Positions 26,215 through 58,999 of a stretch of 64,000 nt of DNA are shown in pieces. The translations under genes and the position numbers were made by a program. How positions within the stretch are numbered: the stretch's first letter is position 1; every line of letters starts with the position of its first letter. The notes beneath the pieces were generated by a model, which did no database searches, was not told the DNA's origin, and saw only the letters and a program-made list of their open reading frames with translations. Origin of the DNA: a virus (Duplodnaviria > Caudoviricetes); IMG/VR virus record IMGVR_UViG_2622736592_000004, positions 1 through 64,000 of that record; one strand, written 5' to 3'.

Positions 26215-26952
26215 TCAGCCCCGTTGGATCCCCGACAGCAGCAGGTCGGCTCGCCCCTGCTTGAGCAAATATGCCCTCAACCGCGCCTTCGCCTCAGGGG
26301 TGTCGTTGTGGACACGATTGAAGATCGGCTTCAACGACTGGATGGCCTTCACCTCGGCCTTCTCGGCACCCGCCCGTGACAGAAACCGCTGCACCTTCGA
26401 GTGGTCCGCAAACTCGGCCCAAGACGACCTGACTGCGTGCGCGGCCTGGCGCACTGACACGTCATTGGTGATGCCGACATAGATGAGCACCCCGCCGGCG
26501 TCGTACCAGAAGTACAAGGCGGTAGGGCTCGCCTCGATCTGGCCGAGGTAGTCCAAGAGGGTCCGGTACTCGACGAAGTCCGGGAAGCGCCGCTCGCTGC
26601 TGATCATTCTCCCGCACACCGCGAGGAATTCCGAGATGTCGCTCTGGTCGTCAACCGCCTTGAAGGTGGACTCGAAGGTGTCGATGTCGACCTCTTGCCC
26701 ACTGTCAGCCAAGCGCAGCAGGGTAACGCAGATGGTGCGGTGCACCCCGAAGAAGTCAATCGGCTTGATGTGTGATCGAGCCCGCTTGATGAGCGGAGCG
26801 CCTCCGCGCATCATGGACGCCAACGCGATCCGCTGGTGAACTTGGTGCATCTTCGGGCTCATGTCGTCCAGAGTCCAAGTGGAGTTCTCGTTCTCCAGCG
26901 GCACCGGCGACATGCACGGTTCGTTGGTCTGGTGCTCGTCTACGCTATCCAT
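26215..26952 (-). CDS. DnaB N-terminal-like domain fused to a GIY-YIG nuclease
   Basis: IKPIDFFGVHRTICVTLLRLADSGQEVD (DnaB_N-like) plus ALYFWYD..LIYVGIT..R..H...E..AI..KPIFN. Confidence 0.7.
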   Translation of the reverse strand: MDSVDEHQTNEPCMSPVPLENENSTWTLDDMSPKMHQVHQRIALASMMRGGAPLIKRARSHIKPIDFFGVHRTICVTLLRLADSGQEVDIDTFESTFKAVDDQSDISEFLAVCGRMISSERRFPDFVEYRTLLDYLGQIEASPTALYFWYDAGGVLIYVGITNDVSVRQAAHAVRSSWAEFADHSKVQRFLSRAGAEKAEVKAIQSLKPIFNRVHNDTPEAKARLRAYLLKQGRADLLLSGIQRG

Positions 26953-27762: not shown

Positions 27763-28536
27763 TCACAGGTCGATGCGGTACTCCAACTGCACCCCATCAC
27801 CCGGATACACGATCTCCCGAGCCACCTCCACCACCCGCTCGCCGGCAAGCATCTTCCGGGTGATCGCCAATACCGGCCCCGCCGACATGCGCAGCGTCTC
27901 CGCCTCCCTGGCGTCCGGCATCCGCGACACCACCGTCTCCACCACTCGCGTCACCCGCACCCCCAGCGATGCCAGATGCCCGATCGCCCCACCCGGTGCC
28001 GGCTCCGACTCCGGTCCCGCCACCCACGTCCCGGCCACCATGTCCGCCAGGTAGTACGACGTCGACATGTGCGTTGGCCAGCCATCCACCCGGAACACCA
28101 GATCGCGGCGCACCAGAGGCGTGCCCTCGGCCACCTCGAATAGTTCGGCGACCTCCGCCGTAGCGGGCTCTTCGGTGATCACCGCGTCGGGGTTGTGCTG
28201 CCCCCATGCGAGGCCGTAGTCATGCGTGACCGACGTCTGCGGGCGTTCCTGGGTGGAGTCCACGTCGGCGCGGTAGCGGGATGAGGCGAGACGCCGGGCG
28301 GGAATGCGGGGGCGCACAAACGAGCCCCGGCCCTTGATGGTGTGGATGCGGCCTTGCGCGCGGAGCACGTCGAGGGCTTGGCGTGCAGTGTTCCGCGCGA
28401 CCTGGAATTCGTTCTGGATGTCCTTGTCGGAGGGGAACGGCATGCCGTTGCCGAGGATGCCCGCGTCTATGCGACGCCCCAGTTCGTCTGCGATCTGGGC
28501 GTAGCGGGGGCGGGGGTCGGCTTCCATGCAGGTCAC
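27763..28536 (-). CDS. GntR/HutC-type repressor with UTRA domain (KorSA-like)
   Basis: PRYAQIADEL...FPSDKDIQNEFQVARNTARQAL..GRGSFV; UTRA-like C-terminus; divergent from the tra operon. Confidence 0.9.
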   Translation of the reverse strand: MTCMEADPRPRYAQIADELGRRIDAGILGNGMPFPSDKDIQNEFQVARNTARQALDVLRAQGRIHTIKGRGSFVRPRIPARRLASSRYRADVDSTQERPQTSVTHDYGLAWGQHNPDAVITEEPATAEVAELFEVAEGTPLVRRDLVFRVDGWPTHMSTSYYLADMVAGTWVAGPESEPAPGGAIGHLASLGVRVTRVVETVVSRMPDAREAETLRMSAGPVLAITRKMLAGERVVEVAREIVYPGDGVQLEYRIDL

Positions 28537-28593
28537 CCTAACGGCCGATCTTGCATCTTTCGCATCGCCTGTAAGGACACCACGCGAATATAC

Positions 28594-28609
28594 CCCGTGT
28601 CTAGACAGG
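28594..28609. promoter_or_regulatory. Putative GntR operator
   Basis: Palindrome TGTCTAGACA fits the GT-N-TA-N-AC consensus of HutC-subfamily GntR regulators. Confidence 0.65.
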
Positions 28610-28627
28610 GTCGGCTAGTCAGGTGTA

Positions 28628-30289
28628 TTGTCCTGTCTCGTGACCAACCACGCGAGCGTCCTCCGCATCCCCGACCCGGGAGAGCCCACCCAGTGGCATG
28701 TGCCGCCGGCCCCCGAACCAGGCATGCTCGACCACGCCACCGGCTGGATCACCGACTGGTTCACCAACCCCGACAACACCATGACCACCGTCGCCGTCGC
28801 CCTCGGACTGCTCCTCACCGCCAAGGTGCTCCGCCGACGCCGCAAGCCCACCACCAACCAACCCACCGACGACCTCACCGCCACCGACCGGGCCATCACC
28901 CGCATCAGCGCCGGCATCGCCACCGTCGTAGTCGCCCTCGGCATGTGGCAGTTCTTCACCGACGTCATCGACGTTCACTGGTCGGTGCGGCTCGTCCTGT
29001 TCTTCTTCATCGAACTCGGCATCTTCGACGCTGCCCGCCGCGCCACCCGCCACCTGTACCGCCACGGCAACCTCGGCAACGCCCACCGGGCCGTGTTCTT
29101 CCTCGCCGGAATCTCAGCCGGGCTGTCCGCCATCCACGCCGACAGCCTCGACCTGCGGCTGTTCCGGATCGCCGCCGCCGTCGTCGCCTCCTACATGTGG
29201 TTCGAGAGCCTCCGCGAGCAGCGCGACATCCTCCACCACCGCAACCCCGGCAAGTACCCGCCCATCACCAGCCGGGGCATCCCGTGGAAGCGCATCGGCG
29301 CGACCCTCGGCCTGGTCGAAGCAACCACCCTCGGAGTCACCGAAGTCGCCACCCAGCGGCGCATCGACCGCCTGTCCCGTCTCCTCAACCACTTCCACGC
29401 CGTCACCGCCGGCACCGACCCCGGCCGCGTCAAGCAGTGGTACATCAGCTTCCTCACCCGCCGGGTGGTGCGGAAGACGCAGGCCGCCTGCAAGTACATC
29501 AACCTCGCCGAGGACCCCGAGGTGCGGAAGATGCTGCTGCGTCGCCTCAACGTCGTCCGGGGCATCGTGGAAGCGACGAAGCCTGACGCCACCCGCCACG
29601 GTGACGTGTGGGCCGACGTCACCCAGATCGCCACCGGCGACGCCGACCGTCACCGTCACGTCATCGACGTTGACGTCACCACCGACGCACCGACGCCCAC
29701 CGTCACCCGTGACGCCGACGGTGACACCCCGAGGGTGACGCCCCCGCAGACGCCTACCGTCACCCGTCAGCCTCCGACGCCCGTCACCCCGCATACCGTC
29801 ACCATCGACGGTGACGCCACCCCGGCAACCGTCACCAGTGACGCCACCGCCGACGCGCCAACCATCACCGTCACCACCGCTGACGCCACGCCCGCCACCG
29901 TCACCCGCCGGCCCGTCACCGTCAGACGCGCCAGCACTGACGTCGCCGTCGTCCGACCCCTCAGCCGCGACCTCCTCGACGAGCGGGTCCGCGACTGGAC
30001 CGTCGACGAAGTCCGCGACTACGCCGCCGGCAAGGCCCGGCAGATCGTCGCCGGGGGAGGCACCAAGAAGGAAGGCATGCGCGTGTTCCTGCTGCTCTGC
30101 ATGGCCCTCGGCGTTGACCCGGCTGGCACGTGGATGGCCGAGCCGGTGGAAGGCGCTGAGTCTGCGGCCCGCACCAACAAGGCGAAGTGGTTCGCCGAGT
30201 GGGCCGTCTACGACGCCGAGCAGATCCTGCTCGCCGAGCACAACAAGATCGTCGCCGAACTCGCCGACGGGGGTGACGTCCGTGCCTGA
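28628..30289 (+). CDS. Spd-like polytopic membrane protein with VT-rich linker and possible C-terminal DNA-binding domain
   Basis: About 5 hydrophobic segments; GTCAC-encoded linker; first gene of the tra operon; start uncertain. Confidence 0.65.
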   Translation: MSCLVTNHASVLRIPDPGEPTQWHVPPAPEPGMLDHATGWITDWFTNPDNTMTTVAVALGLLLTAKVLRRRRKPTTNQPTDDLTATDRAITRISAGIATVVVALGMWQFFTDVIDVHWSVRLVLFFFIELGIFDAARRATRHLYRHGNLGNAHRAVFFLAGISAGLSAIHADSLDLRLFRIAAAVVASYMWFESLREQRDILHHRNPGKYPPITSRGIPWKRIGATLGLVEATTLGVTEVATQRRIDRLSRLLNHFHAVTAGTDPGRVKQWYISFLTRRVVRKTQAACKYINLAEDPEVRKMLLRRLNVVRGIVEATKPDATRHGDVWADVTQIATGDADRHRHVIDVDVTTDAPTPTVTRDADGDTPRVTPPQTPTVTRQPPTPVTPHTVTIDGDATPATVTSDATADAPTITVTTADATPATVTRRPVTVRRASTDVAVVRPLSRDLLDERVRDWTVDEVRDYAAGKARQIVAGGGTKKEGMRVFLLLCMALGVDPAGTWMAEPVEGAESAARTNKAKWFAEWAVYDAEQILLAEHNKIVAELADGGDVRA

Positions 30290-30701
30290 CACCACCGACG
30301 CCAGCGACGTCACCGTCATCCCCGACCGGTGGGACCGTCACCCCACCGTCACCCACCACGACCTGACCGCCGACGGCGTCACCACTGACGCCGTCATCAC
30401 CGGCGGACTGACGCTCCACCGCGCACGCCGTCACATCCGCGCCGCCGTCACCCGTGACGCTGACGCCGCCCTACGCGGCATCCGTCACCTACTCGCCCGA
30501 GACCGTCACACCGTCACCGAGGAGGACTGACGCCATGACCACTGACACCCTGCCCGCCGCCGTCACCGACGCCGCCGCACCCGTCACCCTCGACGGTGCA
30601 CGTGTGCACCGCGACTGGCGTCAGCTCGGCGCGGAAGCCGCCGGCATCACCACCGCCGTCACTGCCGCCGGTGCCCTTTACACCGCCACCTTCCAGGTCA
30701 C
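29601..30701. repeat. GTCAC/GTGAC (core CCGTCACC) repeat field, candidate clt/centromere-like site
   Basis: About 33 copies counted by eye in two blocks (29601-29920, 30273-30701) spanning three genes. Confidence 0.75.
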
Positions 30702-31756
30702 GCCCGTCCTCATGTGGGCCCTCGCCGTCGGCTGTGCCGTCGCTGTCGTTGCCCTCATCGTGCTGCTCACCCTCATGCGGCGGGAGGGTCGACGGTGGAC
30801 CCTCGCAGTCGACGTCGACCCGTCCTGACCAGCGCAAACGCCACGGAGAGAGGAACCAGGAAATGCCGAAGCTGTACGAGTTGCGGGTGTTCAAGGGTCA
30901 GCAGCCCGTCCGCGTCGCCAACCGGCTGCTCGTCACCCTCGACCTCGCCGACCCGGCCAGCGTGAATGACCTGCTCAGGCGGCATCTCCTGGCCATCGCC
31001 GAGCGGGACGGCGCGACCCGCCGCGACGCGCACCTCTACCACGTCAACGTCCACGAGGTCCGCAACGAACGCGCCGAACGCGACGCGTCCTTCCAGTTCA
31101 GCACCCCCGTGGAGGTGTGACATGTCGGTCAAGTCGCTGCGAACCAAGGCCAGCAACCGGGCCGCCACCGCCCAGGCGCGAATCAACTCCACCGCCTCCC
31201 CGTACGAGAAGCTGCGGCACGCCCTGGAGTGGGTGATGTCCGAAGCGAGAGCCGCCGGCAGGGACACCGCACAGGACACCGTCGCGACGATCACGAAGGT
31301 TGCCCGCGAACTCAACGAAAGGAGCCGGCCGTGACCGAGAGTGTTGTGGCACTGCCACATGGCACCGCAGTTGGCGGGTCCGACAGCCCGCGCGCGTCTG
31401 CGCGCGCGAGAGTCAACCGAAGTGTAACCCGCCGTGACCGTGTTCGTCGCGTCGGGGCGGCCCGCCCGGTCGCCGCAGCCCGCCGCATCGGCCGTGTCAT
31501 GTACCGCGACGCCGCCGACTCGTGGATCGTCCGCGACTCCACCCCATCGATTCAGCAGGTGTGGGCCACCGATTACGCGGCCCTCACCACCATTGACTAC
31601 CCGCCGTTCCGCATCTGGTGCCGCTTCTGGCGGTACCCGGCGGTCCTCGCCGCCGCCGGCCTCGACTCGGCGAAGTGGATGCTCATCCACCCCGTACGCG
31701 GCCCCCTGTTCCTCACCGCCACCGGCGTCGGCGTCGCCGCCGCCACCACCCTCTAA
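30282..31756 (+). other. Five small tra-operon genes (30282-30530, 30535-30828 TM, 30863-31120, 31122-31334, 31331-31756 TM)
   Basis: Tightly coupled ORFs with RBSs. Confidence 0.65.
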
Positions 31757-31777
31757 ACCCCCACGGAGGTACCCGCC

Positions 31778-32179
31778 ATGTTCGAGTTCGGAGCCCGCAC
31801 CGGAGCCCTGTTCATCGCCGCCGCACTCCTGTTCGCGGCCCTGCGCTTCCACAAGTCGTCCAGCCCGAAGGGCAAGAAGGCCGGCACGGTCCTCGCCGGT
31901 GTCGCCGGCATCGCGTTCCTGATGACGTTCGTCGGCGAGTGGATGGGCGACGTTGCCCAGCTCGGCGGTGCCCTCGGCGTCGCCCTGCTGATCGTCGCCG
32001 TCTCCACCATCCTTGTGGACTGGGGCCTCGACAAGAGGCCGGACAAGCCGGCGTTCTGGGCCATGTTCGCCCTGCCCGCACTGCTGGTGTTCGGGGTCAC
32101 CCAGATCCCGGCCGTCGGCGACCAGCTGGGTGACGGCGGGCAGCAGGTCGCCGAGCAGATGAGCAAGGTCGGGAAGTAG
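31778..32179 (+). CDS. Four-TM membrane protein (Spd-like)
   Basis: GGAGG RBS; four hydrophobic helices. Confidence 0.75.
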   Translation: MFEFGARTGALFIAAALLFAALRFHKSSSPKGKKAGTVLAGVAGIAFLMTFVGEWMGDVAQLGGALGVALLIVAVSTILVDWGLDKRPDKPAFWAMFALPALLVFGVTQIPAVGDQLGDGGQQVAEQMSKVGK

Positions 32180-32183
32180 CCCG

Positions 32184-33584
32184 ATGATCGAAATGATTCT
32201 CGGTGCGATGGTCGTCGCCCTGTGGGTGAAGGCCGTTCCCGCCGCCGTCGCCGACGCGATCGCCACCCTCCGCGCGTCGAAGGCCGGCGAGTGGGGGCTG
32301 ATCGACAAGGAGCGCGACCGGAAGGCCGCCCGTTCTAAGGCCCGCCGCGACGCCATCGCCTCCATCCGCTCGAAGCGTCACAAGCAGGCCGGCGGCGACG
32401 GCAAGGAGTACCGTCCCGGCGCGCTGGCGTACCTCTCCGACGTGTACCACGGCCTGTGGGAAGACGAGTTGGAGAAGCGCCGTGCAAAGCGGGCCGCGCG
32501 TCCGCCCGTCGGCCCGGACGGGAAGCGTCCGCCGGTGAGCCGCGTCGACCAGGCGGTGGAGGCGAAGGTCCGCCAGCAGCGCGCGAAGACCGGCTACCTG
32601 GGACGGGCCGCCCGCGCTCTCATCGACCCGGTAGGGGAGAGCCCGCAGCACGCTGACGTGCCCACCACCCAAATCTGCCCCGTATGCCTGCATGTAATGA
32701 CCGTCGGCGAGGAATGCGAGACGTGCGCGTTCAACCGCCAGCTCGACCAGACGACGCGGCAGACCCTCGCCGAGCACGACCAGCGGAGGGCGGCCACCAC
32801 CGCAGAGGACGGCCCCCGCATCGCCTGCCCCACCTGCGGCGACAACCTCATCCAGGGCCGCGACGGCTGGTACCACCGCTCCGACTCGCTCTGCAAGGAC
32901 GTACGGCCGGGCGGCGGGCCGGACTACCCGAGCCGGGAGGTCACCGCCCCCCTCGACGGGGGACGGCAGCCGGGCAGCACCCGCGAGGCGTCGCGGGACC
33001 ACGACCTTGACGACGATGACGACATCAGCCTCACCGGCGACAAGGTGATCGCCGGCCTCGCCGGGCCCGGCGGCCTCTTCGAAGGTGTCGCCGAGTGCGG
33101 CGGGTGCGGCTTCCAATTCGAGCAGGTCGGCGACGAGCTGCGCTGCGCATGCAGCACCCAGCCCACCATCAAGACCCCAGCCCACATCCACAACACCGGC
33201 ACGACCGACAACGGAGGAACCGACATGAACACTGCCACCGGCGACGTCCACGACGTGGAGTCCTGCAAGACCGAACTCACGGCCCTCGGCGACGACCTCA
33301 CCCGCGTCGACACTGCCCTCGACGTCATCGACGAGGCCATCCGGTCGGCGAAGGCCGCCAGCGAGGCCATCGAGGCGTGGCTGCGGGACAAGAACGCCGA
33401 CGCCTGCGTGCCCGGCATGAGCGCCGCCCTGGACGCCCTGTCCACCGACCGCATCAAGGAACTCATGGACGCCGTCGCCGCCGCCCGTCGGGGAGTCGCC
33501 GACACCATCGACAACCTCGCCCCGCTGGAGGAGGCGGCCGAGCTGATCGGTGGCACCGACGGTTCCGCGCTCAACGGCCGCTGA
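32184..33584 (+). CDS. TraA-like protein (N-terminal TM, Zn ribbons, C-terminal helical bundle)
   Basis: Directly upstream of the FtsK-like ATPase; CPVC, CETC, CPTC and CGGC motifs; internal GGAGG RBS before ATG 33225. Confidence 0.6.
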   Translation: MIEMILGAMVVALWVKAVPAAVADAIATLRASKAGEWGLIDKERDRKAARSKARRDAIASIRSKRHKQAGGDGKEYRPGALAYLSDVYHGLWEDELEKRRAKRAARPPVGPDGKRPPVSRVDQAVEAKVRQQRAKTGYLGRAARALIDPVGESPQHADVPTTQICPVCLHVMTVGEECETCAFNRQLDQTTRQTLAEHDQRRAATTAEDGPRIACPTCGDNLIQGRDGWYHRSDSLCKDVRPGGGPDYPSREVTAPLDGGRQPGSTREASRDHDLDDDDDISLTGDKVIAGLAGPGGLFEGVAECGGCGFQFEQVGDELRCACSTQPTIKTPAHIHNTGTTDNGGTDMNTATGDVHDVESCKTELTALGDDLTRVDTALDVIDEAIRSAKAASEAIEAWLRDKNADACVPGMSAALDALSTDRIKELMDAVAAARRGVADTIDNLAPLEEAAELIGGTDGSALNGR

Positions 33585-33687
33585 CGTCGGATCGTTGCCG
33601 TCATCCCCAGGCCCCACACAGGTGGGCCGCCTGGGGGTGGCGGGATCAACCCGACACCCACCCCCCATACCAGCTTGGAGCCGCCCC

Positions 33688-36099
33688 ATGCACACCACCG
33701 AGCATCGCCCGGCGAGCCTGCCGAACCGGGCGGACCCGTCCGGTGACGCTCGGCCCACCCCCGGAGACGACCCTGCCGCCACACGCCGGCAACTCCCACC
33801 CGGTGCGTCCCACTGGTCCCGCACCTACTACGACGACCAAGGCATGCAACAGGTCGCCAAGGTGTCGGTGCCTGTCACCGGACAAGGCCGCATCGCCGCC
33901 AACGAGTGGGAGTGCCCCACCTGCGGCCCTCAGTCCCGCAGGTGGATGAGCGCAACCCTGGCGACCGCCCCGTTCTGCGACCTCCACGACATGGAGATGC
34001 GCAAGCTCAAGCCCGGACGGAACCCGTCAGTAGGGGTGACACCCCCGTGGAAGGACATCGTCCGGGCCGTCGACCACCGCATCCGCGTTGGCGCGGCCAT
34101 CGCCGCCGCAGGCACCGCCGGACTCACTGTGGACGTGGTTGACATGCCGTGGTGGGGGCACGCCGCCCAGATCGCCGCGATCCCCGCCGCGATCAGCGGT
34201 TCGTGGTGGCTGACCCGAGTCTGGCTGATCCGCGAGGCGGTACGCCTCAACAACCTTGACCCCGACGACGAGGTTGCCGGCCGACGGGAACGGCGGAACA
34301 TCGCCAAGAGGGCACGGATCGCCGCCTACTGTGCCGCCGCCGGCATGAGCTGGATTGAGATCGCCGACCTGCTCAACATCGCCTCACACCCGGCCCGTGG
34401 CGTGTCCCTGATCGCTGGTCTCATCGCCGCCGGTGTGATCGCCTCACGCCCCTACCTCAACTGGGTGGACAGGCGTCGCCGGGCCAAGCCGACCCCCGCC
34501 GTCGCTGCGGCGACAGCGATGCCTGACGAGCCGCCGGCTGAGACTCCCACCGACGACGAGCAGCTCGCCGCCTACGTCACCGGACGGTGGAACGAACGCA
34601 TCTCCGCAGAGCGAGGCCCCCTGCCCGGCACCTACCTGGAGGCCATCCGCCGCACCTACGGCGGCTGGTCCGCTGTGGTCGTCGCCACCGACGAGTCCGA
34701 CCTGGACCCGGAACGCTTCGAAACAGACAAGACCATCGGCAAGATTGCCCGCGCCTACGGGGTGGGCGTGACCATGGTGACGGTCACCGCCGACCCGCTC
34801 GACGCGAACCGGGCAATGATCCTCGTGCAACGCACCTCACCCCTGTCCGAGGCCCGAGCGTGGGACGGCACCGGCATCGACCTGACCACCGGAAAGGCGT
34901 ACACCGCCTCCGTGGACGACGGCGACCGGGCGCAACACCCGTTCTGGCGTCCCGGCTGGGGTGCCGTCATGGAACTACTCGCCGGAGCAACCGGATCCGG
35001 CAAATCCGAGTACCTGAACCTGCTGCTCGCGTTGGAGCGGCAGTCAGGGGTGTGCGTGTCGTGGGTGTGCGACCCGCAGATGGGCCAGTCGCTGGGTGAC
35101 ATCCGCGACGGCGTCGACTGGTTCGCGCCCACCGTCGAAGAGTTCCTCATCATGCTGCGGGTGGCAGTGCAGGTGATGCTCGCCCGCAACGTGCTGATCA
35201 CCCGCATGAGGGTGAAGGAGACCCGCCCCAGCGGTGAAGTGGTGGAACGCCGCGTCAAGTACGTGGAGGTTTCCGCCGACTTCCCGCTGCTCGACATCAC
35301 CTGCGATGAGGCGCACATCCCCATGAACGACCCCGACCACGGCAAGGAGATCGTCGCCCTGCTGGCGTTGCTGGCCAAGTCGGGCCGCAAGTGCAACATC
35401 AAGGTGCGTCTGATCACCCAGTCGCCACTGCTGACCGAGCTGAAAAACTCGGTGCTGCGTTCCCAACTGTCGTCCGGTTTCGTGGCCGTGTTCCGAACCG
35501 CCGACAAGCTGACCGGTGCCGCCTGCTGGCCCGGAAAGATGCCCGGCGACCCTGCCCTACTCCCCGCCGAATGGCCGAACGGCAACACCGCCGCCGGAGT
35601 GTGCTACATGTCCGGGCAGAAGCCGCTGAGGCACCGCTCCGACTATGTGGGCGACGTGTACGACCTGATGCACTCCGGGGAGACGAAAGGCTTGGAGCCG
35701 GCTGTCCTCGGCGCGGCCGGTGTGCTGTACGCCGACCGGCACAAGCGGCTCGCCGCGTTCGACGCCATGGACCCCGCCGAGCTACTCGGCACGCAGATCC
35801 CCACCCTCGACCGGCCGGCAGGACAGGGTGACCCGGCGGGAGGGAAAGGCGGCGGCCGGGAGGCGGTGCTGGAGTTCTTCGCCGACCGGTGGAACAGCGG
35901 CGACGTCGACCCAATCAAGTTCGGGGTCATCGACGAGAACGTGAAGGCCGTCAAGACCCGGGCGTTGACGAACGTTCTCAACAAGCTGGTGCAGGAGCAG
36001 GTATTGGCGAACGAGACGGGACCGGACGGCAAGAGCGGCTGGTACCGGCTCACGGAGTCGGGTGCCGAGCACCTGGGCGTCGATGAGGTTGGCCTGTGA
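33688..36099 (+). CDS. traB: TraB-like FtsK/SpoIIIE DNA translocase
   Basis: N-terminal TMs; Walker A AGATGSGKS; Walker B LDITCDEAH; GRK..TQ motif; C-terminal wHTH. Confidence 0.85.
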   Translation: MHTTEHRPASLPNRADPSGDARPTPGDDPAATRRQLPPGASHWSRTYYDDQGMQQVAKVSVPVTGQGRIAANEWECPTCGPQSRRWMSATLATAPFCDLHDMEMRKLKPGRNPSVGVTPPWKDIVRAVDHRIRVGAAIAAAGTAGLTVDVVDMPWWGHAAQIAAIPAAISGSWWLTRVWLIREAVRLNNLDPDDEVAGRRERRNIAKRARIAAYCAAAGMSWIEIADLLNIASHPARGVSLIAGLIAAGVIASRPYLNWVDRRRRAKPTPAVAAATAMPDEPPAETPTDDEQLAAYVTGRWNERISAERGPLPGTYLEAIRRTYGGWSAVVVATDESDLDPERFETDKTIGKIARAYGVGVTMVTVTADPLDANRAMILVQRTSPLSEARAWDGTGIDLTTGKAYTASVDDGDRAQHPFWRPGWGAVMELLAGATGSGKSEYLNLLLALERQSGVCVSWVCDPQMGQSLGDIRDGVDWFAPTVEEFLIMLRVAVQVMLARNVLITRMRVKETRPSGEVVERRVKYVEVSADFPLLDITCDEAHIPMNDPDHGKEIVALLALLAKSGRKCNIKVRLITQSPLLTELKNSVLRSQLSSGFVAVFRTADKLTGAACWPGKMPGDPALLPAEWPNGNTAAGVCYMSGQKPLRHRSDYVGDVYDLMHSGETKGLEPAVLGAAGVLYADRHKRLAAFDAMDPAELLGTQIPTLDRPAGQGDPAGGKGGGREAVLEFFADRWNSGDVDPIKFGVIDENVKAVKTRALTNVLNKLVQEQVLANETGPDGKSGWYRLTESGAEHLGVDEVGL

Positions 36100-36830
36100 C
36101 CGTACGCCCGACCACGTCCGCACCCCGGCGGCAGGCACGACCAGACGTGCGCCGCCGGGGCGCGGTGTACGGCATCCCCACCCTCGCCGTGGACGCCCTC
36201 GGCAAACCCATCCCCGGCACCGTCGTCGTCGGCTACATCGGCCAAACCCGGCAGACCGTCAAACAACGCGAAGGCCAACACCGCGTGTCACAGCCGTTCG
36301 GTGACCTCATCGTCGGCGGCTCGTGGGTCATCGAGGAAGGGTTCTGGACGGACGCCGAACTGGACGCGAAAGAGCAGCACTACATCCGTGGCGGGGCGGT
36401 GCTGGTGCCCGGCCAAGCACCGCAGCGGCCCGTCTACAACATCGACCACAATCGGGAAAACCCGAATCGGATCCCGCCGTGGGATGCGCTGGCGCACCGG
36501 CAGGCACGAGAGCCGGGCTGGCAGCCGCCGCCGAAGGGCGCACGGATCCCCACCCAGCGGGGTGCGGCGTCCACGGTCCGGCCGCGCCCGGTGTCGCCGC
36601 TGTCCCGCTGGTGGGGTCGCCGCCGCTGGCAGGTGGTGTTGTGGGCAGCCGTGTGGGCGCTGCTGTTCGCGGGCTCGTGGTGGGTTGGTGCTGACACGTG
36701 GTCCGGGTGGGCGGAGCCCCGCAACGCGGCAGTCGCCGCCACCGTGGCCACCGCCGGCATCGGGTGGCGAGGTTGGAAGACGTCCGGGCCGAAGCGCCGC
36801 CGGTCGAAGCGTCGGGGGCGACGCCGGTGA
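36096..36830 (+). CDS. GIY-YIG-like domain with C-terminal membrane anchor
   Basis: AVYGI...GYIGQTR..QRE.QH...E..YI...PVYN; two TM segments and a basic tail. Confidence 0.7.
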   Translation: MTVRPTTSAPRRQARPDVRRRGAVYGIPTLAVDALGKPIPGTVVVGYIGQTRQTVKQREGQHRVSQPFGDLIVGGSWVIEEGFWTDAELDAKEQHYIRGGAVLVPGQAPQRPVYNIDHNRENPNRIPPWDALAHRQAREPGWQPPPKGARIPTQRGAASTVRPRPVSPLSRWWGRRRWQVVLWAAVWALLFAGSWWVGADTWSGWAEPRNAAVAATVATAGIGWRGWKTSGPKRRRSKRRGRRR

Positions 36831-37072
36831 AATGGTGCTGGGAGGCATACGACCGGGCCGGGGTCCGCCGCATCGCAGACACCCTCACCGACCCGTGGGC
36901 CGACACACCGGAAGGGGCCGCCGAACTAGGCATGGCACACCTGATGGTGAAGGTCCGGCCCAAGTTTCGGCGGCTACGCGGGTGGCGTGTGCGGGCATGG
37001 GATGACCTGGTGGGGGAGGCGTGGGTGGACGCCGACGAGTGGCTGCACGCCCGCGCCGCAGCAGACCGGTAG
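36827..37072 (+). CDS. Hypothetical protein, last gene of the tra operon
   Basis: GTGA overlap; followed by a terminator. Confidence 0.6.
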   Translation: MKWCWEAYDRAGVRRIADTLTDPWADTPEGAAELGMAHLMVKVRPKFRRLRGWRVRAWDDLVGEAWVDADEWLHARAAADR

Positions 37073-37080
37073 ACGCAACG

Positions 37081-37120
37081 AAGCGGCCCCGCCCTCCACG
37101 ATGGGGGAGCGGGGCCGCTT
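37081..37120. terminator. Hairpin terminator
   Basis: AAGCGGCCCCGC...GCGGGGCCGCTT between convergent genes. Confidence 0.8.
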
Positions 37121-37131
37121 CGCGTTCAGGG

Positions 37132-37945: not shown

Positions 37946-38377
37946 ATGACCACCATGACCACCGCCCAGGCGGCCACCAAACTCGGCATCTCCATCCGCA
38001 CCGCCCAGCGCCGCTGCGCCACGGGCAAACTCTCCGCCCACAAAGACGCCCGGGGCCGCTGGACCATCACCATGGAGGACGCCATGACCCTGCCCCAGCT
38101 CACCGGCCCCGCCGACTACCTGATCAGGGCGGCCGAGCGCGACCGCGCCGCCGCGCTCGACCGGATCACCGCAGAGGTCACCGAGGCCGCAGGCGATGCC
38201 CCCGCCAATCTCGTCACCGAGGTGGCCGCCCTCTACCGCGAGGTGGCGCTGCGCCACACCGACGCCGGTTGGTGGAGCTCCACCGAGGGCCGGCACCTCG
38301 GCCGGCTCTTGCAGTGGGAGTTCACCGCCGACGACAAGGCCCGCCTCATCGCCCTCGCCGCCCGCCGCGCAGCCTAG
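37946..38377 (+). CDS. Excisionase/MerR-like HTH protein
   Basis: MTTAQAATKLGISIRTAQRRCATGKLSAHK..GRWTI. Confidence 0.75.
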   Translation: MTTMTTAQAATKLGISIRTAQRRCATGKLSAHKDARGRWTITMEDAMTLPQLTGPADYLIRAAERDRAAALDRITAEVTEAAGDAPANLVTEVAALYREVALRHTDAGWWSSTEGRHLGRLLQWEFTADDKARLIALAARRAA

Positions 38378-45198: not shown

Positions 45199-45582
45199 TC
45201 AGGCGACCCGCTCGGTTGCGGTGCCGTCGATCACCCGATCGCGCACCACACCACCGGAGATCGCCGCCTGCTGCGCCCGCGTGTCCTTCAGCAGGCCGAC
45301 GTAGAAGACGACCGCGAGGCCGAAGTTCACCAGCACCGCGTACGCCGCATCCGCGAAGTTGAAGCCGACGCTCGCCTCGACGGCGACCAGCCACGCCTCC
45401 AGGAACGTCTTCACAGCGGCGACCGCGAGCAGCACCAGCCCCTTACGGAACGCCGACCACGACGTGCGCATGAACAGGGCCGCCACCAGGGGCAGCAGGA
45501 ACGTGAGCGCCAGCGACAGCACGCCCGCCAGGGTGGGGGCGAACAGGTAGGTGGGCAGCTCGGGAAGGATGACAGAATCCAT
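45199..45582 (-). CDS. Holin-like membrane protein
   Basis: Three TM segments; last gene of the lysis cluster. Confidence 0.7.
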   Translation of the reverse strand: MDSVILPELPTYLFAPTLAGVLSLALTFLLPLVAALFMRTSWSAFRKGLVLLAVAAVKTFLEAWLVAVEASVGFNFADAAYAVLVNFGLAVVFYVGLLKDTRAQQAAISGGVVRDRVIDGTATERVA

Positions 45583-45675
45583 GGCCCCTCCTTGGGGTGA
45601 GTCAGTTGGAGAAGTCGGCTCGCCCGTTTACGTCGAGCCGTAATTGTTGAAGTCGGGGCCGGATACGGTGGCGTC

Positions 45676-45933
45676 ATGCCAGGTCAGCCGCAGGTACGCG
45701 AGTCCGCGTGGCTGCATGCGCCCGGCGACCCGTACGTACCACTCGCCCACGTCCGACTTGAGGAACGCATGGACGGCAGCGGCGCGTGGGACATCTACGT
45801 GTCCGACCCGGCGTCAGCACCAAGCCAGCACGCCCGCTGGCCCGACGAGGACGGGGCGCGGAGCGAACTGGAACGGCTCTACGCGGCCGGCTCGGTGGAC
45901 GGCAACTGGCGGATCACACGGTCCGACCGTTGA
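45676..45933 (+). CDS. Hypothetical protein antisense within the lysis cluster
   Basis: TACGGT 6 nt before ATG (leaderless). Confidence 0.55.
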   Translation: MPGQPQVRESAWLHAPGDPYVPLAHVRLEERMDGSGAWDIYVSDPASAPSQHARWPDEDGARSELERLYAAGSVDGNWRITRSDR

Positions 45934-46366
45934 CCGCAGGCGGCGACGGACGCCCCACCAGCCGCCGTAACGCCGGAATATCCGGCTCCGGCCGCCACAC
46001 CTCCGCCTGCACCGACGTCAACGTGTCCGTGAACCGGCCGACCACCTTAGTCATCCGCTCCAGGCGGCCTTCCAGTTCGGTGATCTGCGCCCGCAGCCGG
46101 GCCACATCTGCGTCAGCCTCATCGCGAATCCGCTCGGCCCGATCCTCCGACTCTCGCGCTTCCTTTCGGGCGGCCTGCTCGCTGGCCTGCAACTGGTTCG
46201 CCCACTGCAACATGGCGTCGCGTCGGGACGCCCTGCCGGCGACCCGGTTGGTGATGGCGCTGACGACGATCGCCGCAGCAGCCGAGATCAAACCGACGAT
46301 GACCGTGGTCGCATCCAACCCCGACGAAGCAGCCGAAACGATCATTCCGAGGGTGGTGGGGTCCAT
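45914..46366 (-). CDS. Membrane protein with coiled coil (lysis cluster)
   Basis: TM TVIVGLISAAAAIVVSAI followed by a heptad-rich helix. Confidence 0.7.
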   Translation of the reverse strand: MDPTTLGMIVSAASSGLDATTVIVGLISAAAAIVVSAITNRVAGRASRRDAMLQWANQLQASEQAARKEARESEDRAERIRDEADADVARLRAQITELEGRLERMTKVVGRFTDTLTSVQAEVWRPEPDIPALRRLVGRPSPPAVNGRTV

Positions 46367-46776
46367 GCTGGTTGTCCTTTGCTGGTGACCGGCTCTGGCC
46401 AGCCCGCGATCAACCACACACACATCGCGAACGAACCCCACACCACCGCCGACACCCAGCCATCCGGCACATCGCCGAGGACCCAGCCCGACAGGTACAG
46501 GGAAAACCAGAGAACCTTGATGCCGATGGCGGCGGTGAACGCCACCCTGTCGCAGTTCCGCACCGACCCCAGGGCGCAGACGACAGCGATGGCGATCCAT
46601 AACACAGCCCACGGCCACAACGGGAGGATCCCGTGCAGCCAGGCGTAGAACGGCTGGGCGTCAGGGCTGGCAGAGGCGAGGCGCAGCCCGTACGCGACGT
46701 CGAGGGCGGCGAACACCAACAGGGCGGTGCCTCGCCGGCCGACCTTGTGGTGAAGCCGTGCGACCGCCCTACCCAT
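46342..46776 (-). CDS. Four-TM membrane protein (lysis cluster)
   Basis: Hydrophobic helices; coupled to the endolysin gene. Confidence 0.7.
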   Translation of the reverse strand: MGRAVARLHHKVGRRGTALLVFAALDVAYGLRLASASPDAQPFYAWLHGILPLWPWAVLWIAIAVVCALGSVRNCDRVAFTAAIGIKVLWFSLYLSGWVLGDVPDGWVSAVVWGSFAMCVWLIAGWPEPVTSKGQPAWTPPPSE

Positions 46777-47720
46777 CAGGACGGGGTGTTGTCGTCGACC
46801 CGGCCGGTGAAGGTGAACGTGGCCGGCAGCACGAGCTGCCCGGACGGACCCTGCGGGCCAGGGTCACCCTTCGGCCCCTGCGGACCCGCCGGCCCCTGAG
46901 GCCCCTGCGGGCCGGCAGGACCCGGCTGACCGGCACCGCCGTACCGCTTCGCCATACACATCTGCAACTGCACGTGACCCCACGGGTCGTACTTGTCGCC
47001 GGACGTCGCGGAACTGCCGACGCTCTTACGCATCCGCAGCACCGCAGCCGACGTGCCCTTCCCGTACTTGCCGTCCTCAGCCCCGGCCTCGAAGCCGAGG
47101 TAGTTGAGGGCGACCTGGAGGGCCTTCACGTGCTGGCCCTCATCGCCGATCTCGCAGAGCATCAGCATCCCTCCTGCTGTCGAAGTTGTGAGCCCGATGT
47201 ACGCCAGGTAGCGGCGAAACACGGGGGTCAGATCAGTGCCAGCCTTCGTGACATCCCGGAATACGCTGGCGTGCGTGTGGGACAGGTGCGACGTGTCGCC
47301 GCTCGACCGCCGCTTGAGCCGATCCCACCGCTTGACCGTCGAGCCGTCGGGGCTGTAGATGACCTCGCGGATCCACAAGGTGTCCGGTGCGCCCGCCTCA
47401 CACTCACCGACCAGCCACACGCTGAACGTGCGCAGGTTGTGCGTCTTGCCGTTGATGGTGACGCTGAACCAGCCGACATCCAGGGCCGACGCGTAGTCGC
47501 TCAGGCCCGTCTTGTCCCGCGACGACTCGACCACCGAGTAGTCGTTGGTCACCACCCGGTCAGAGCCGCAGTGGTATCCGCCCCGGTGTGCGTCGTCGGC
47601 GACGATGCCGACCTCGTTGGGTTCGAGGTCCGCCGACCGGGCTGTGCCTGGGTCCATGTCCAGATGCGTGAGGAGCAGGGAGCGGACCTGCATCAGGTTG
47701 GCTGGTGCGCGGGTCACCAC
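46776..47720 (-). CDS. Endolysin: putative Zn-peptidase, peptidoglycan-binding domain and collagen-like tail
   Basis: GYH...SALD...HTH; GDEGQHVKALQVALNYLG..DGKYGKGT (PG_binding_1-like); about 10 Gly-X-Y triplets. Confidence 0.75.
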   Translation of the reverse strand: MVTRAPANLMQVRSLLLTHLDMDPGTARSADLEPNEVGIVADDAHRGGYHCGSDRVVTNDYSVVESSRDKTGLSDYASALDVGWFSVTINGKTHNLRTFSVWLVGECEAGAPDTLWIREVIYSPDGSTVKRWDRLKRRSSGDTSHLSHTHASVFRDVTKAGTDLTPVFRRYLAYIGLTTSTAGGMLMLCEIGDEGQHVKALQVALNYLGFEAGAEDGKYGKGTSAAVLRMRKSVGSSATSGDKYDPWGHVQLQMCMAKRYGGAGQPGPAGPQGPQGPAGPQGPKGDPGPQGPSGQLVLPATFTFTGRVDDNTPS

Positions 47721-47742
47721 ATCACCTCCGAGATGTTGCCGG

Positions 47743-49215
47743 TCACGCGGTCATGTCCCACGTGATGGAGTCCAGCCACACCGACTGGCCCGACGTAAGG
47801 CTGTTGCCGAGGGTGATCTCACCGTTCGTGGCGATCTGGAGTTGCGTGCCGCCGCCCGTGTACCGGGCGATCGTCGTCACCGCCGCGAGCGGCCGATGCG
47901 CGGTCGTCGGGATGACCGCGACCACCGCCCCCGACGACACCGCCCCAGTCGCGGTCAAGGTGCCCCGCAACCTTCCGTTGTCGCCTCCTCGATCCAGCCG
48001 GGACGCCGCCGCCTTCGTGCCCAGCGCCATGTTGGTGCCCGCCGTCAGGTTCACGAACGACGTGGGGGCAGCGGACCCTCCCGCCGAACCGGTCGTCCAC
48101 GTGCCCGGGGTTCCGCCAGCCGTGCACAGGTAGACGGCACCCGCAGAGTCGAGCACCACGTCACCGGTCGTCCACGTGCCCGACGTCGGTGCCCCCGTCG
48201 TGGCGCGCTGCCCCCGCCAGTTGATCGCGGTCAAGCTGTTGTAGGAGCCGCCCGCGCGGACACCGAGCAGGCCGGCGAGGACACGGGTGGCCACAATCCA
48301 GCCGGGCTGGGTGGAGTGGGCGGTGCCGTACGCCCCCAGTAACGGTTCGCGGTTCGCGGTGACGCTCGGGTTGGTGCTGAGCTCGAAGAACCGGCCGGTC
48401 GACGGCCCGCCCTGGTTCTCGTAGAACTCGAAGAACCTGCCGCCGATCCGGTTGTTGGTCGACGGGGCCCCGCGCACCTCGCCGTTGCCGTTCGCCCAGA
48501 ACGTCTTGACCGCAGCCCCACCCGAGGTGGTCGAGAAGAATTGCAGGGTGTCCGGGTTGTTGTCGCCCGACGAATACGCCATCTGCATCCGCAGCCACGG
48601 GTTACCGGACTGGCCCTGCGTCGGATCCGGTGCCGTCGCCGCCTGCCCCACATATGCGCCACCCACCTTTGGTGGGTTGAGCAGCAGCGCGCCGGCCACC
48701 TGCGACGGCGACAGCAGCGTGAACTGGCCGCCCGACCATCCGATCACCGTGCCATCCACGCGGGCACCCAGAGCACCAGCAGACACATCGGAAAGGTTGG
48801 CCAGGCCAGTGGAGTGCGGGTTGAGGGACGCCGCATGCGCCGCCAGAGCAGCCGCGTTGTCGGCGGCCTGCTGCCCGACCTGCTGCAACCGGGAACCCAG
48901 GACGCCGACCAGCCGCACCCGAGGGCCACCACCTGCGGACGCCCACAGGTCAGTCACCTCATCGGGTGCCTGAAACGGCGGGATCTGACCCAGACCGCGC
49001 GTGCCAGTTCCGTCAGCAGACGTGACCATGGTGACCGGGTTACCGGCCTCATCCAGCAGGTCGGTGTACGCGACACCGCCCGTCTCCGCAGACCACACCG
49101 TGACCTGCTGCCCGCCCACCACCACCGACTGCGCGCCGGTGACCGTACCGACCGTCACCTCGTCGCCCACGGTGATCGTGTAGTCGGCGGCCCCACCGCC
49201 AAACCAGTACCGCAC
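47743..49215 (-). CDS. Tail fibre / receptor-binding protein
   Basis: G/S/T-rich; last tail gene before the lysis genes; GAPTSGTW..GD motif. Confidence 0.7.
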   Translation of the reverse strand: MRYWFGGGAADYTITVGDEVTVGTVTGAQSVVVGGQQVTVWSAETGGVAYTDLLDEAGNPVTMVTSADGTGTRGLGQIPPFQAPDEVTDLWASAGGGPRVRLVGVLGSRLQQVGQQAADNAAALAAHAASLNPHSTGLANLSDVSAGALGARVDGTVIGWSGGQFTLLSPSQVAGALLLNPPKVGGAYVGQAATAPDPTQGQSGNPWLRMQMAYSSGDNNPDTLQFFSTTSGGAAVKTFWANGNGEVRGAPSTNNRIGGRFFEFYENQGGPSTGRFFELSTNPSVTANREPLLGAYGTAHSTQPGWIVATRVLAGLLGVRAGGSYNSLTAINWRGQRATTGAPTSGTWTTGDVVLDSAGAVYLCTAGGTPGTWTTGSAGGSAAPTSFVNLTAGTNMALGTKAAASRLDRGGDNGRLRGTLTATGAVSSGAVVAVIPTTAHRPLAAVTTIARYTGGGTQLQIATNGEITLGNSLTSGQSVWLDSITWDMTA

Positions 49216-49239
49216 TATGACTCCTCAGGGGTGGGGTGA

Positions 49240-50172
49240 CTACAGGGGCCAGGACTTGCTGCCGCGTGCGATGACACCGGCGGCCATCGGCTCGTCCGCG
49301 CGGAGTTGCATGGTTCCGGAAGGCGCGAAGTGCGCGACCGCCGTCGCGCCGCCGAGCAAGTCGCACGACTCGCTCATACCGACCGTCGTTCGGTACTCGG
49401 CGGGAATCAGGAACGCTGTGGACAGCGCACCGGCGGCAACCGTGCTGCCGACCCGGTGGGTGTCCCACCTGCACCACACGGTGCCGTTCTTGGCGCGGAG
49501 CTTGATGCTCGTGGACGCGCCCGTCCATCCGGCCTCGGCGGTCAGGTCGATCCAGCCGGTGTCGCCGAGCAGCAACACCCACACGGTGCCGTTCGACTCG
49601 TAGCTGCGGCCGGTGTCCAGTTCCCGGATCCGCCGGCCCGGCTCGTGCGGGGGCCGGGTCGTGGACGTGCACAGCAGTTGCCCGTCCGACCCGACATACC
49701 AGGCCAGCGGGATGCACTGGCCGGCGTCGGTGACCGTGTCGTTGTAGGGGACCGTCACCTCAGCCAGCGGCAGTTCCCAAACGCCCGTCGAGGTGTCTTC
49801 CCCGTAGGTGGGGGATGGGGTGGTGGGGGTGGCGAGCGCCGACCCCTTCACCACGGCCAAGCCGATCGTCCACGGGTTTCGGGACAGCCGCAGCACGATC
49901 AGGTCCTTGCGGGTGGTGCCCGCCGTGCTGTTCGCATCGACGGTCAGGCTGACCTCGGTGTCGCCGGAGTCCCACCGCAGACCCCGCAGCAGCGCCGCCC
50001 GGGACGCCCGCACCTTCACCCCGAGCAGCGTCGAATCCGCATACACCAGCGGCGTCAGAGCAGGTGATCCGATGAGCCCATCCGGGGCCATCGGGTGCAT
50101 CAGGTCTTCGTACTCGCGGGGCGTTACCGCACGCGAGTTGTGGGCGGTGGTGGGGTACGCGTAGCCAGCCAT
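49240..50172 (-). CDS. Minor tail protein
   Basis: RKDLIVLRL...WELPLAEVTV; position in the tail operon. Confidence 0.8.
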   Translation of the reverse strand: MAGYAYPTTAHNSRAVTPREYEDLMHPMAPDGLIGSPALTPLVYADSTLLGVKVRASRAALLRGLRWDSGDTEVSLTVDANSTAGTTRKDLIVLRLSRNPWTIGLAVVKGSALATPTTPSPTYGEDTSTGVWELPLAEVTVPYNDTVTDAGQCIPLAWYVGSDGQLLCTSTTRPPHEPGRRIRELDTGRSYESNGTVWVLLLGDTGWIDLTAEAGWTGASTSIKLRAKNGTVWCRWDTHRVGSTVAAGALSTAFLIPAEYRTTVGMSESCDLLGGATAVAHFAPSGTMQLRADEPMAAGVIARGSKSWPL

Positions 50173-50190
50173 CCGCGCCTCCCCTCAGGG

Positions 50191-51387: not shown

Positions 51388-51397
51388 AAGCCACCCC

Positions 51398-52345
51398 CTA
51401 CGCCGTGTTGTAGTGGGGGTAGAACGTCACGGTGATCGTGGTTCCCGGCCCAGAGCCGGCCACCGTGAACTCCAAGTCGTTGACGCCCGGCCTCAACCGC
51501 CACAGGGTTGAGCCGGGCCGTTGCAGTGCGCCGCCGAGCATTTCCCCAGACGGGCCGAGGACCCGCCCCGGGTCGGTGGTGATGGTGATCGTCTGCCCCG
51601 CCGACAGCGCATAGTTGATGGTGAACTGCTGGCCGAGGGTGTTGTTGGTGGCGACCAGTTGCGTCGCCGGCCCCGTCAACGTCCAGGTGGGCCACGCCTC
51701 CACCGTGCCGGGATTGGTCATCTCGGTTGCGCCGAGCACGTCGCCGGAGCTGATGTTGGGGAACGGGTCGAGGTAGTCGACGGTCTCCCCGTAGGCGCGG
51801 GACAGGGTGATGGGCTGCGAGTCCCGCCACAACCCGTCAGGGCAGAACAGCGACAGCGTGGGCGTGTCCTCCGTCTGCCCCTGGCCGGGTTCGCCTTCCC
51901 ACCCGGACTGGTAGTAGGCGAGCACCTCACGCGCGGTGCCGTCGGGGCGGACCAGCCGAAACAGACCCGGGCCGTCCCACATGGTTAACGCGAACGACTC
52001 CGCTAAATCCCGCCACCGCTGCAGGAATTCGAGGTGCGTCTTACCTCGGATCCGCACCGGCCACGTCAAGTTGCGGGCCTGCCGACGCACCCCCGTCACC
52101 TGGACCCCGCCACGTGCGGCAGGACGCGACTGGATGGCGATGGGGGTGAGCCCGTAGCCGGTGACGGCATTCAGGGAGAACAGGTCCCGGCCGGGCGGGT
52201 TGAGATACCACTCCACCCCGGCCGGATCAATCCACAGCGGCACATACTCGCCCGGATCGAACCGGGGCAGCGGCACCGGTAGCGGCCTCGGTGGGGGTGG
52301 CTCAACCGGCGGTGTGGTGGGGGCAGCCCCAATGATCAGCGGCAC
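51398..52345 (-). CDS. Distal tail protein (Dit)
   Basis: Directly after the tape measure; NPGTVEAWPTW..GP...L.PGVN motif. Confidence 0.8.
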   Translation of the reverse strand: MPLIIGAAPTTPPVEPPPPRPLPVPLPRFDPGEYVPLWIDPAGVEWYLNPPGRDLFSLNAVTGYGLTPIAIQSRPAARGGVQVTGVRRQARNLTWPVRIRGKTHLEFLQRWRDLAESFALTMWDGPGLFRLVRPDGTAREVLAYYQSGWEGEPGQGQTEDTPTLSLFCPDGLWRDSQPITLSRAYGETVDYLDPFPNISSGDVLGATEMTNPGTVEAWPTWTLTGPATQLVATNNTLGQQFTINYALSAGQTITITTDPGRVLGPSGEMLGGALQRPGSTLWRLRPGVNDLEFTVAGSGPGTTITVTFYPHYNTA

Positions 52346-52366
52346 CAGCCACCCCCACCCATCTGA

Positions 52367-58524: not shown

Positions 58525-58535
58525 TACTGGTCCTC

Positions 58536-58985: not shown

Positions 58986-58999
58986 GCGGCCACCCCCGA

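Follow-up and report, generated by a model that had tools for sequence, protein, structure and literature searches.

A putative TraB-type DNA transfer module beside the tail genes of a large Micromonospora prophage

We have analyzed a stretch of 64,000 nucleotides of viral DNA (the window; positions 1 to 64,000 of IMG/VR record IMGVR_UViG_2622736592_000004) in which a GntR-type repressor gene and a divergent operon encoding membrane proteins and an FtsK-like ATPase lie near the tail genes of a tailed phage. This group of genes, referred to below as the module, resembles the TraB-type modules that transfer double-stranded DNA (dsDNA) in Streptomyces plasmids. The window corresponds to C12:12-64011, at the left end of a 284-kb contig (C12) of a Micromonospora genome (7.9 Mb in 51 contigs; the genus is indicated by the names given to the closest homologues), and has a G+C content of ~69%, compared with ~73% for the genome. 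Genes were called by third-position GC content (GC3), since raw lists of open reading frames (ORFs) are useless at such high G+C.

The repressor gene (27763-28536, minus strand) encodes a 257-aa analogue of KorA/TraR with a GntR helix-turn-helix (HTH) and a UTRA domain of the HutC type (Pfam PF00392, 4.9e-12, and PF07702, 5.5e-15). The 103-bp divergent gap between this gene and the operon contains an operator-like palindrome, TGTCTAGACA (28598-28607), which occurs only once in the window. Its right half is also the -35 element (TAGACA) of a promoter-like site, TAGACA-18-TATTGT (28602-28631, plus strand), the only sigma-70-like site detected between 26 and 39 kb. Operators of the HutC subfamily reportedly share the core GT-N-TA-N-AC (Rigali et al. 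2002), and the palindrome core, GTCTAGAC, agrees with this pattern. An earlier note on this DNA had described a GntR-UTRA repressor with a palindrome, divergent from an 11-gene operon; this description is borne out by the Pfam matches, the uniqueness of TGTCTAGACA and the GC3 gene calls. The linkage of a GntR-family repressor of the kor/traR kind to a tra operon, which characterizes TraB systems, is therefore found here.

The operon comprises 11 plus-strand genes (28640-37072) that are tightly coupled, with 4-bp overlaps or short gaps between them. Hydrophobic helices are predicted in six of the products (549, 97, 133, 466, 803 and 244 aa, the 803-aa protein being the ATPase), in agreement with the several membrane proteins noted earlier. 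The first gene (28640-30289) encodes a polytopic membrane protein of 549 aa with several transmembrane segments at residues 46-190, and it occupies the position of the DUF2637 protein in relatives of the module (contig G214:C438 and plasmids, described below). It is followed by genes for proteins of 82 aa (30282-30530, the start overlapping the stop of the preceding gene), 97 aa (30535-30828, with one strong transmembrane helix), 85 aa (30863-31120), 70 aa (31122-31334) and 85 aa (31499-31756); the last three are 53%, 45% and 62% identical to their G214:C438 counterparts. A small Spd-like protein of 133 aa with four transmembrane helices (31778-32179) has counterparts in the related loci G281 (51% identity), G269 (47%) and G214:C438 (35%), and the 466-aa protein (32184-33584) has an N-terminal transmembrane anchor and corresponds in position to a gene of ~320-430 aa in the relatives. 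Downstream of the ATPase gene (33688-36099), and overlapping it at a GTGA, is a gene for a 244-aa protein with a C-terminal transmembrane helix (36096-36830), which in turn shares a GTGA overlap with the last gene of the operon (36827-37072, 81 aa). Residues Y47, G49, R58, H62, E93, Y114 and N115 of the 244-aa protein are invariant in five homologues; the positions of these conserved motifs, and no family match, suggest that it is GIY-YIG-like. The terminator reported earlier at the end of the operon corresponds to a GC-rich terminator-like hairpin with a stem of ~20 bp (37071-37124) between convergent genes, which was not called by a simple scan for T-tract terminators. Neither the small proteins nor those of 549, 466 and 244 aa had a match in Pfam, NCBIfam, PHROGs, PADLOC, PDB sequences or the ESM Atlas.

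The 803-aa protein (length according to public gene calls) is identified by profile, fold and alignment as a TraB-like dsDNA translocase of the FtsK family. In an alignment of 26 homologues, G433, G436, G438 and K439 of the Walker A motif (residues 433-440) are invariant, as is the DE pair at 540-541 (D540-E541). The best match of the alignment profile in the PDB is the FtsK motor (2.1e-7), followed by EccC and TcpA; the match of the C-terminal winged HTH to YodB is weak (E 0.79). The AlphaFold2 model has a mean predicted local distance difference test score (pLDDT) of 77, with values above 85 across most of the motor, and consists of a small beta domain rich in Cys at residues 42-88, a set of long helices at 121-265, the alpha/beta motor at 289-700 and a winged helix at 724-796 made up of three helices and a beta hairpin with pLDDT mostly 70-85. 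Among the helices at 121-265 only 239-257 lies above a strict hydropathy threshold, and three others are weakly hydrophobic. Foldseek matched the motor to FtsK (6t8g, 2.3e-13, target TM-score 0.60) and to the conjugative coupling protein TcpA (2.6e-13). The FtsK-like ATPase with a C-terminal winged HTH proposed in the earlier note is therefore real, but it is divergent. TraB proteins are ordered as a membrane part, an FtsK-like translocase and a C-terminal domain that recognizes clt (PMC4447253). In the predicted structure the ATPase has this TraB layout, its N-terminal helices being a possible membrane part, and it is an architectural match that stands outside the curated family.

A total of 42 homologues of the ATPase share 55-80% identity over at least 94% of the query, the closest (75-80%) being from other Micromonospora strains. 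The Micromonospora genome has canonical FtsK genes elsewhere, and the ATPase is not the division protein of the host. More distant relatives were found by tblastn on 109 actinomycete plasmids, 94 of them from Streptomyces, with ~33% identity over the motor and winged helix and E values down to 8e-40. On the two plasmids that were inspected, a GntR gene lies upstream of, and divergent from, an operon that carries an ATPase gene of 688-707 aa together with small genes, a 534-579-aa protein (with DUF2637 in one of the two) and a protein of ~400-430 aa. Residues 42-100 of the Micromonospora ATPase form a small beta domain with conserved CPxC and PxC..H motifs that is zinc-ribbon-like; we know of no description of such an N-terminal domain for Streptomyces TraB.

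The start of the operon also contains an array of short repeats that is a candidate for clt, the recognition site of TraB. Seventeen exact copies of CCGTCACC, all on the plus strand, are found at 29400-30588. The window as a whole has 36 copies, compared with 8.9 expected, a number that none of 100 shuffles reached, and the array region contains 34 GTCAC cores (26 plus and 8 minus). The array extends over three consecutive genes and is read in two frames, as x-Val-Thr in 14 of the 17 copies and as Arg-His in the remaining 3. There is a codon-pair bias as well, Val-Thr being encoded by GTCACC in 18 of 21 cases in the array versus 45 of 94 in the rest of the window. Arrays of other repeats, just as dense, precede the ATPase gene in the related elements: GTGGGC in G269 (51 plus and 7 minus copies in ~1.1 kb, in all three phases), CGGACA/TGTCCG in G234 (34 copies in both orientations), GCGGAGC in G214:C438 (10 + 2) and CGCGAGG on a Kitasatospora plasmid (12 + 2). 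In Streptomyces, clt consists of arrays of direct 8-bp repeats that are bound by the cognate TraB (PMC4447253), and its defining property is that of short, element-specific repeats recognized by the element's own TraB (PMC4447253, PMC3583192). An array of short repeats on the same element as the ATPase is also a feature of TraB systems, and from its sequence the CCGTCACC array is probably the docking site of the ATPase.

One relative of the element is G214:C438, a contig of 106,207 bp with 66-69% G+C throughout, which is collinear with it. The shared order consists of GntR, DUF2637, seven module genes (28-62% identity), the next gene, tail fibre, tape measure, protease and terminase. The primase-helicase gene of this contig (77226-79910) has a LAGLIDADG domain between Toprim and AAA_25, which suggests an intein. 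Three loci from Micromonosporaceae, G269, G234 and G281, encode an ATPase with ~30% identity over most of its length and also the 244-aa gene, and among these three the four-helix membrane gene was detected in G269 and G281 only. All three also have tape-measure and minor-tail genes that lie within 8-15 kb of the module and are oriented toward it. The fifth locus is on PhiNon1 of Nonomuraea gerenzanensis, a 59,257-bp circle whose free and integrated (tRNA-Val) forms were detected by PCR and which was called a plasmid-phage; its description makes no mention of a transfer module or function (PMC5431353). A block at NZ_LT559120.1 43341-50188 of PhiNon1 converges on lysis and tail genes; along with small genes and genes for DUF2637 and HTH_17 proteins, it comprises genes for a protein of 396 aa and for a TraB-like ATPase of 654 aa (31% identity, E 3e-26). 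The segment encoded directly after the PhiNon1 TraB-like gene includes an N-terminal stretch 44% identical to that of the HTH_17 protein at 37946-38377 of the window. An SsgA-family gene lies just upstream of the PhiNon1 block. In all five further loci that were examined (G214:C438, G269, G234, G281 and PhiNon1), the module abuts the tail end of an operon of phage structural genes. The earlier note had proposed a comparison with related phages, and this recurrence is strong evidence that the module is a stable part of this phage lineage. The present analysis adds evidence for the module in a lineage of integrating Micromonospora phages and in PhiNon1, a published element.

The virion genes of the element lie to the right of the module, and the tail genes converge on it. 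Tail and neck genes (fibres, minor tails, Dit) occupy 45199-64000 on the minus strand and include the tape measure (52367-55930, 1187 aa) and the major tail gene (57668-58138). Capsid, a protease-scaffold fusion, a Mu-type portal and the large terminase subunit (TerL) follow at 64-72 kb of C12, and to the right of TerL are DnaB, a helicase, DnaN, TnpB and then a tyrosine integrase (C12 109.1-110.5 kb), beyond which GC3 climbs to chromosomal values. With terminase, portal, protease, capsid, tail tube, tape measure, integrase and att, the element has the full gene set of a temperate member of the Caudoviricetes. The TnpB gene (C12 93114-94271) is of the IS605 type, with OrfB_IS605 and a Cas12f-like TNB domain, and a copy with 29% identity adjoins the module in G281. 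Between the module and the tail genes, immediately after the hairpin, a divergent pair of genes encodes an HTH_3 protein of 226 aa that may be a phage repressor (37132-37812, minus strand) and an excisionase/MerR-like HTH_17 protein of 143 aa (37946-38377, plus strand); the pair looks like a repressor/excisionase or immunity switch. To the left of the module there is little phage signal: the flank consists of small ORFs, mostly without recognized function, and one endonuclease gene (26215-26952, minus strand, 245 aa) whose C-terminal half matches phage endonuclease PHROGs (2.4e-14). Its product has GIY-YIG-like motifs and homologues in G214:C438 and G269. With the gene at 36096-36830 this makes two nuclease-like genes, one immediately upstream of the repressor gene and the other close to the operon's end. 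The earlier claim of phage-type genes on both flanks therefore holds on the right, where the tail genes extend over 45-64 kb, and is weakly founded on the left.

The borders of the element were located by its att-like repeats. A 43-bp repeat of the 3' end of tRNA-Arg(CCT) lies beside the integrase (C12:110632-110674). The assembly has two more copies, at C5:2321-2363 and within the intact tRNA gene at C5:17204-17278, and no others; the repeats are identical at 43 of 43 positions. No tRNA gene was found within the window or in C12 64-124 kb. The first 349 bp of C12 dovetail exactly with the start of contig C5. The start of C13 dovetails with them as well, over 309 bp, and on the right-hand side this 349-bp repeat has C11 as its other continuation. 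As the repeat is not resolvable by sequence alone, the C5-C12 joint is deduced from att logic and GC3 composition: only C5 holds att copies, the join makes these copies direct repeats, and the first 2.3 kb of C5 have the GC3 of the element (0.83-0.87), versus 0.93-0.97 for C13 and C11. A join of C12 to C13 was rejected, since C13 has no att copy and its GC3 (0.93-0.96) is like that of C11 and unlike that of the element. On this pairing the element most likely lies between two 43-bp repeats and is ~112.7 kb long, with the module ~30 kb inside its left border. The 349-bp repeat itself (window 1-349, corresponding to C5 1-349 and C13 1-309 in reverse and to the end of C11) covers a 91-aa gene with a GC3 of 0.96 and is found at the ends of four contigs. 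Its second copy lies between the integrase gene of C13 (C13:1134-2153) and C11, and genes of C11 are 41-49% identical to genes of G214:C438; the genome may hold a second, related element.

Only one tyrosine integrase is encoded in C12 1-112 kb, at the right end of the element, and this nearest integrase is 73 kb from the module. No att copy, RepSA, ParA or ParB was found near the module, and C12 1-112 kb has no match to ParB_N or AAA_31. The element as a whole has no RepSA either, and no att copy beyond those at its ends. This agrees with the earlier observation that neither integrase, Rep nor att-like repeats adjoin the module, and it answers the suggestion that the flanks be inspected for integrase or par genes: integrase and att are at the ends of the element. 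A separate integrative element does exist next door. An actinomycete integrative and conjugative element (AICE) of the pSAM2 type occupies C5:2364-17203, in tandem at the same tRNA-Arg(CCT) between the intact tRNA gene and the middle att copy, and after the C5-C12 join it would lie ~2 kb to the left of the window. Its products are a GntR-UTRA protein, a 478-aa FtsK_SpoIIIE Tra, RepSA (1.9e-95), a Xis of the HTH_17 type and a tyrosine Int. Within its attP region there seem to be 117 bp of tRNA gene and downstream DNA, 94% identical to the chromosomal copy. The possibility that the module is itself part of a separate AICE with its own att sites and Rep had been named in the earlier note as what would refute its reading. 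This is not the case, as the neighbouring AICE is self-sufficient and has its own tra, and the module is not a unit of 9-24 kb with int, xis, rep and tra of its own within att sites. The structural part of that reading, a module of the TraB/KorA/Spd type inside a tailed temperate element, holds.

By analogy with the Streptomyces systems, we consider it fairly probable that a plasmid-type module for dsDNA transfer is built into this large temperate siphovirus-like prophage at tRNA-Arg(CCT) and enables it to spread independently of capsids. The GntR protein would repress the operon through the TGTCTAGACA palindrome. Once the repressor is released, the prophage would be excised as a circle by the tyrosine integrase, possibly with the HTH_17 protein (37946-38377) as directionality factor. 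The ATPase would then form a hexameric pore and use its winged helix to dock on the CCGTCACC repeats. Assisted by the membrane proteins, it would pump the circular genome, unprocessed, across septal cross-walls or into an adjacent hypha; in the recipient the genome would be established by the integrase. The result would be capsid-independent spread like that of Streptomyces plasmids, AICEs, pZL12 and pFP4, and the element may, as the earlier note supposed, spread both by virions and by conjugation. A broader proposal is more tentative, and we rate it as somewhat less likely than not: that a lineage of integrating phages of mycelial actinomycetes (Micromonospora, other Micromonosporaceae and Nonomuraea) keeps a TraB-like pump and element-specific repeats as a core module by the tail genes, that its members are conjugative prophages which choose between virion release and hyphal transfer, and that the coupled GIY-YIG-like protein may process DNA at the pore.

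Several results weigh against a transfer module within a phage. The ATPase scores 18.9 bits with Pfam PF01580 (FtsK_SpoIIIE), below the family cut-off of 24, and 33 bits with NCBIfam NF041214 (plasmid_TraB), where the cut-off is 800. It had no tblastn match among 50,697 deposited phage genomes, and no relative of the module was found by a scan of IMG/VR. The 549-aa protein has no Pfam match to DUF2637 and no significant BLASTP match to its G214:C438 counterpart, and, with the ATPase and the repressor set aside, no match to a described Spd family was found among the operon proteins. As 14 of the 17 copies encode x-Val-Thr, all in one frame, a repeat at the peptide level may contribute to the array. 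The left border, finally, rests on a 349-bp contig-end overlap that is common also to C13. Megablast of 27-38 kb against phage and plasmid collections gave no match, and a scan of genome contigs with the ATPase alignment was swamped by generic Walker A motifs, yielding only 3 irrelevant P-loop loci. The ambiguous left joint would suit an arrangement of two elements side by side, with the module in an integrated plasmid or AICE (about 1-45 kb of the window) that abuts a prophage, and so would the near absence of recognizable phage genes from the left 27 kb. Related modules do exist on Streptomyces and Kitasatospora plasmids without a phage portal, and the AICE next door shows that tandem accretion at this tRNA is real. 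We nevertheless regard two adjoining elements as very improbable. The interval from the module to the tail genes contains nothing that could separate two elements (att copy, integrase, RepSA or Par); the AICE has its own tra, rep, xis, int and att copies ~30 kb away; GC and GC3 are uniform over the whole stretch; and the convergence of module and tail genes recurs in five other loci, one of them a single 59-kb circular replicon.

If the module belongs to the phage, it could still have a role other than conjugation between mycelia. It might move DNA within one mycelium, or its P-loop ATPase and GIY-YIG-like nuclease might serve exclusion or defence; we judge such a role unlikely, while giving it real weight. 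SpdB2-like genes of actinophages have been suggested to help phage DNA to spread (PMC4447253). The ATPase diverges from curated TraB, and the nuclease-like membrane protein is translationally coupled to it. HerA/FtsK ATPases also occur in defence systems (weak matches), but PADLOC gave only two marginal P-loop matches (E 1e-3 to 2e-3) and no system. The best structural matches of the ATPase, moreover, are DNA translocases and a conjugative coupling protein, and the repressor, the membrane operon, the winged helix and the repeat array together fit a conjugation system (PMC4447253). Spread within one mycelium belongs to the TraB/Spd mechanism anyway, and compared with defence or exclusion and with decay it is the most plausible of the alternatives. 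Decay, in which the prophage, the module or both are relics without current mobility, is in our estimate improbable. An IS605-type TnpB gene inside the element, its very large size and the lack of a close relative among isolated phages would be consistent with it. Against decay, each of the 11 operon genes, like the virion genes examined, has an open reading frame with coding-type GC3, the catalytic residues of the ATPase are invariant and its 42 homologues align over nearly the full length at the identities given above, and the att repeats are identical throughout.

Should the module work as a transfer system, a single element would have two routes of spread, as particles and by direct hyphal transfer of naked dsDNA. 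The hyphal route would escape receptor-based resistance and extracellular decay, and the line between prophages and conjugative elements would be blurred in antibiotic-producing actinomycetes. The element would also be a natural system in which to study how a 113-kb genome chooses between being packaged and being pumped, and the element-specific arrays and divergent winged helices are possible material for studies of recognition specificity.

Of the known systems, the TraB-TraR(KorA)-Spd-clt system of Streptomyces (pSVH1, pIJ101, pSG5 and pSAM2-type AICEs) is the closest in design. It shares with the module a GntR-type repressor over a translationally coupled membrane-protein operon, an FtsK-like ATPase (here putatively membrane-associated) with a C-terminal DNA-recognition domain, and short repeats as (here candidate) clt (PMC4447253). 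The Micromonospora ATPase differs from Streptomyces TraB in its extra Cys-rich N-terminal beta domain and in its score of 33 versus 800 bits. The repressor gene faces the start of the operon and not traB itself, the repeats are 3-4 kb upstream of the ATPase gene and inside other genes, no Spd family is recognizable, and the element that hosts the module is a phage of ~113 kb rather than a plasmid or a 9-24-kb AICE. The motor fold and Walker motifs are shared with FtsK/SpoIIIE and with TcpA of pCW3, and the winged helix of FtsK/SpoIIIE, which reads short polar DNA motifs (KOPS, SRS), offers an analogy for how the predicted winged helix may act; the module ATPase differs from FtsK/SpoIIIE in its N-terminus and in being encoded in a mobile-element operon.

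The conjugative-phage idea is already known from pZL12 and pFP4, and this kind of hybrid is not new. Both are Streptomyces plasmid-phages that are reported to conjugate and to form particles (PMC4170104, citing Chen 2012; PMC3583192 for the pZL12 tra genes), and both pZL12/phiZL12 (GQ919031; Zhong et al. 2010) and pFP4 (Chen et al. 2012) combine tailed-phage genes and a tra operon in one replicon. SpdB2-like genes on actinophages have likewise been noted before, with a suggested aid to the spread of phage DNA (PMC4447253). In pZL12 (GQ919031) a GntR gene and the operon of ~10 genes divergent from it adjoin phage genes, and the operon includes genes for a membrane protein and an FtsK-like protein (71c). 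The precedent of pZL12 drawn in the earlier note is thus fair as to layout, but the Tra proteins are only remote relatives (hhalign 90%, E 1.4e-6). The two elements differ also in genus, in the position of the module (against the tail end here, at the head end in pZL12) and in maintenance: pZL12 is an autonomous plasmid with ParAB, while the present element is integrated at a tRNA by a tyrosine integrase and lacks Par genes. Like a plasmid-phage it unites virion genes and a tra operon in one element; for replication it has DnaB and DnaN only, in place of functions for autonomous maintenance. PhiNon1 has the same gene order (DUF2637-type protein, small genes, ~400-aa protein, TraB-like ATPase, HTH_17) and also integrates at a tRNA, but it is 59 kb long versus ~113 kb, and only the ATPase core and HTH_17 are detectably homologous. 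The element described here is distinguished from these systems by its Micromonospora host, its tRNA integration without Par, its size of ~113 kb, its divergent Cys-rich TraB clade and the GIY-YIG-like membrane protein that is coupled to the ATPase.

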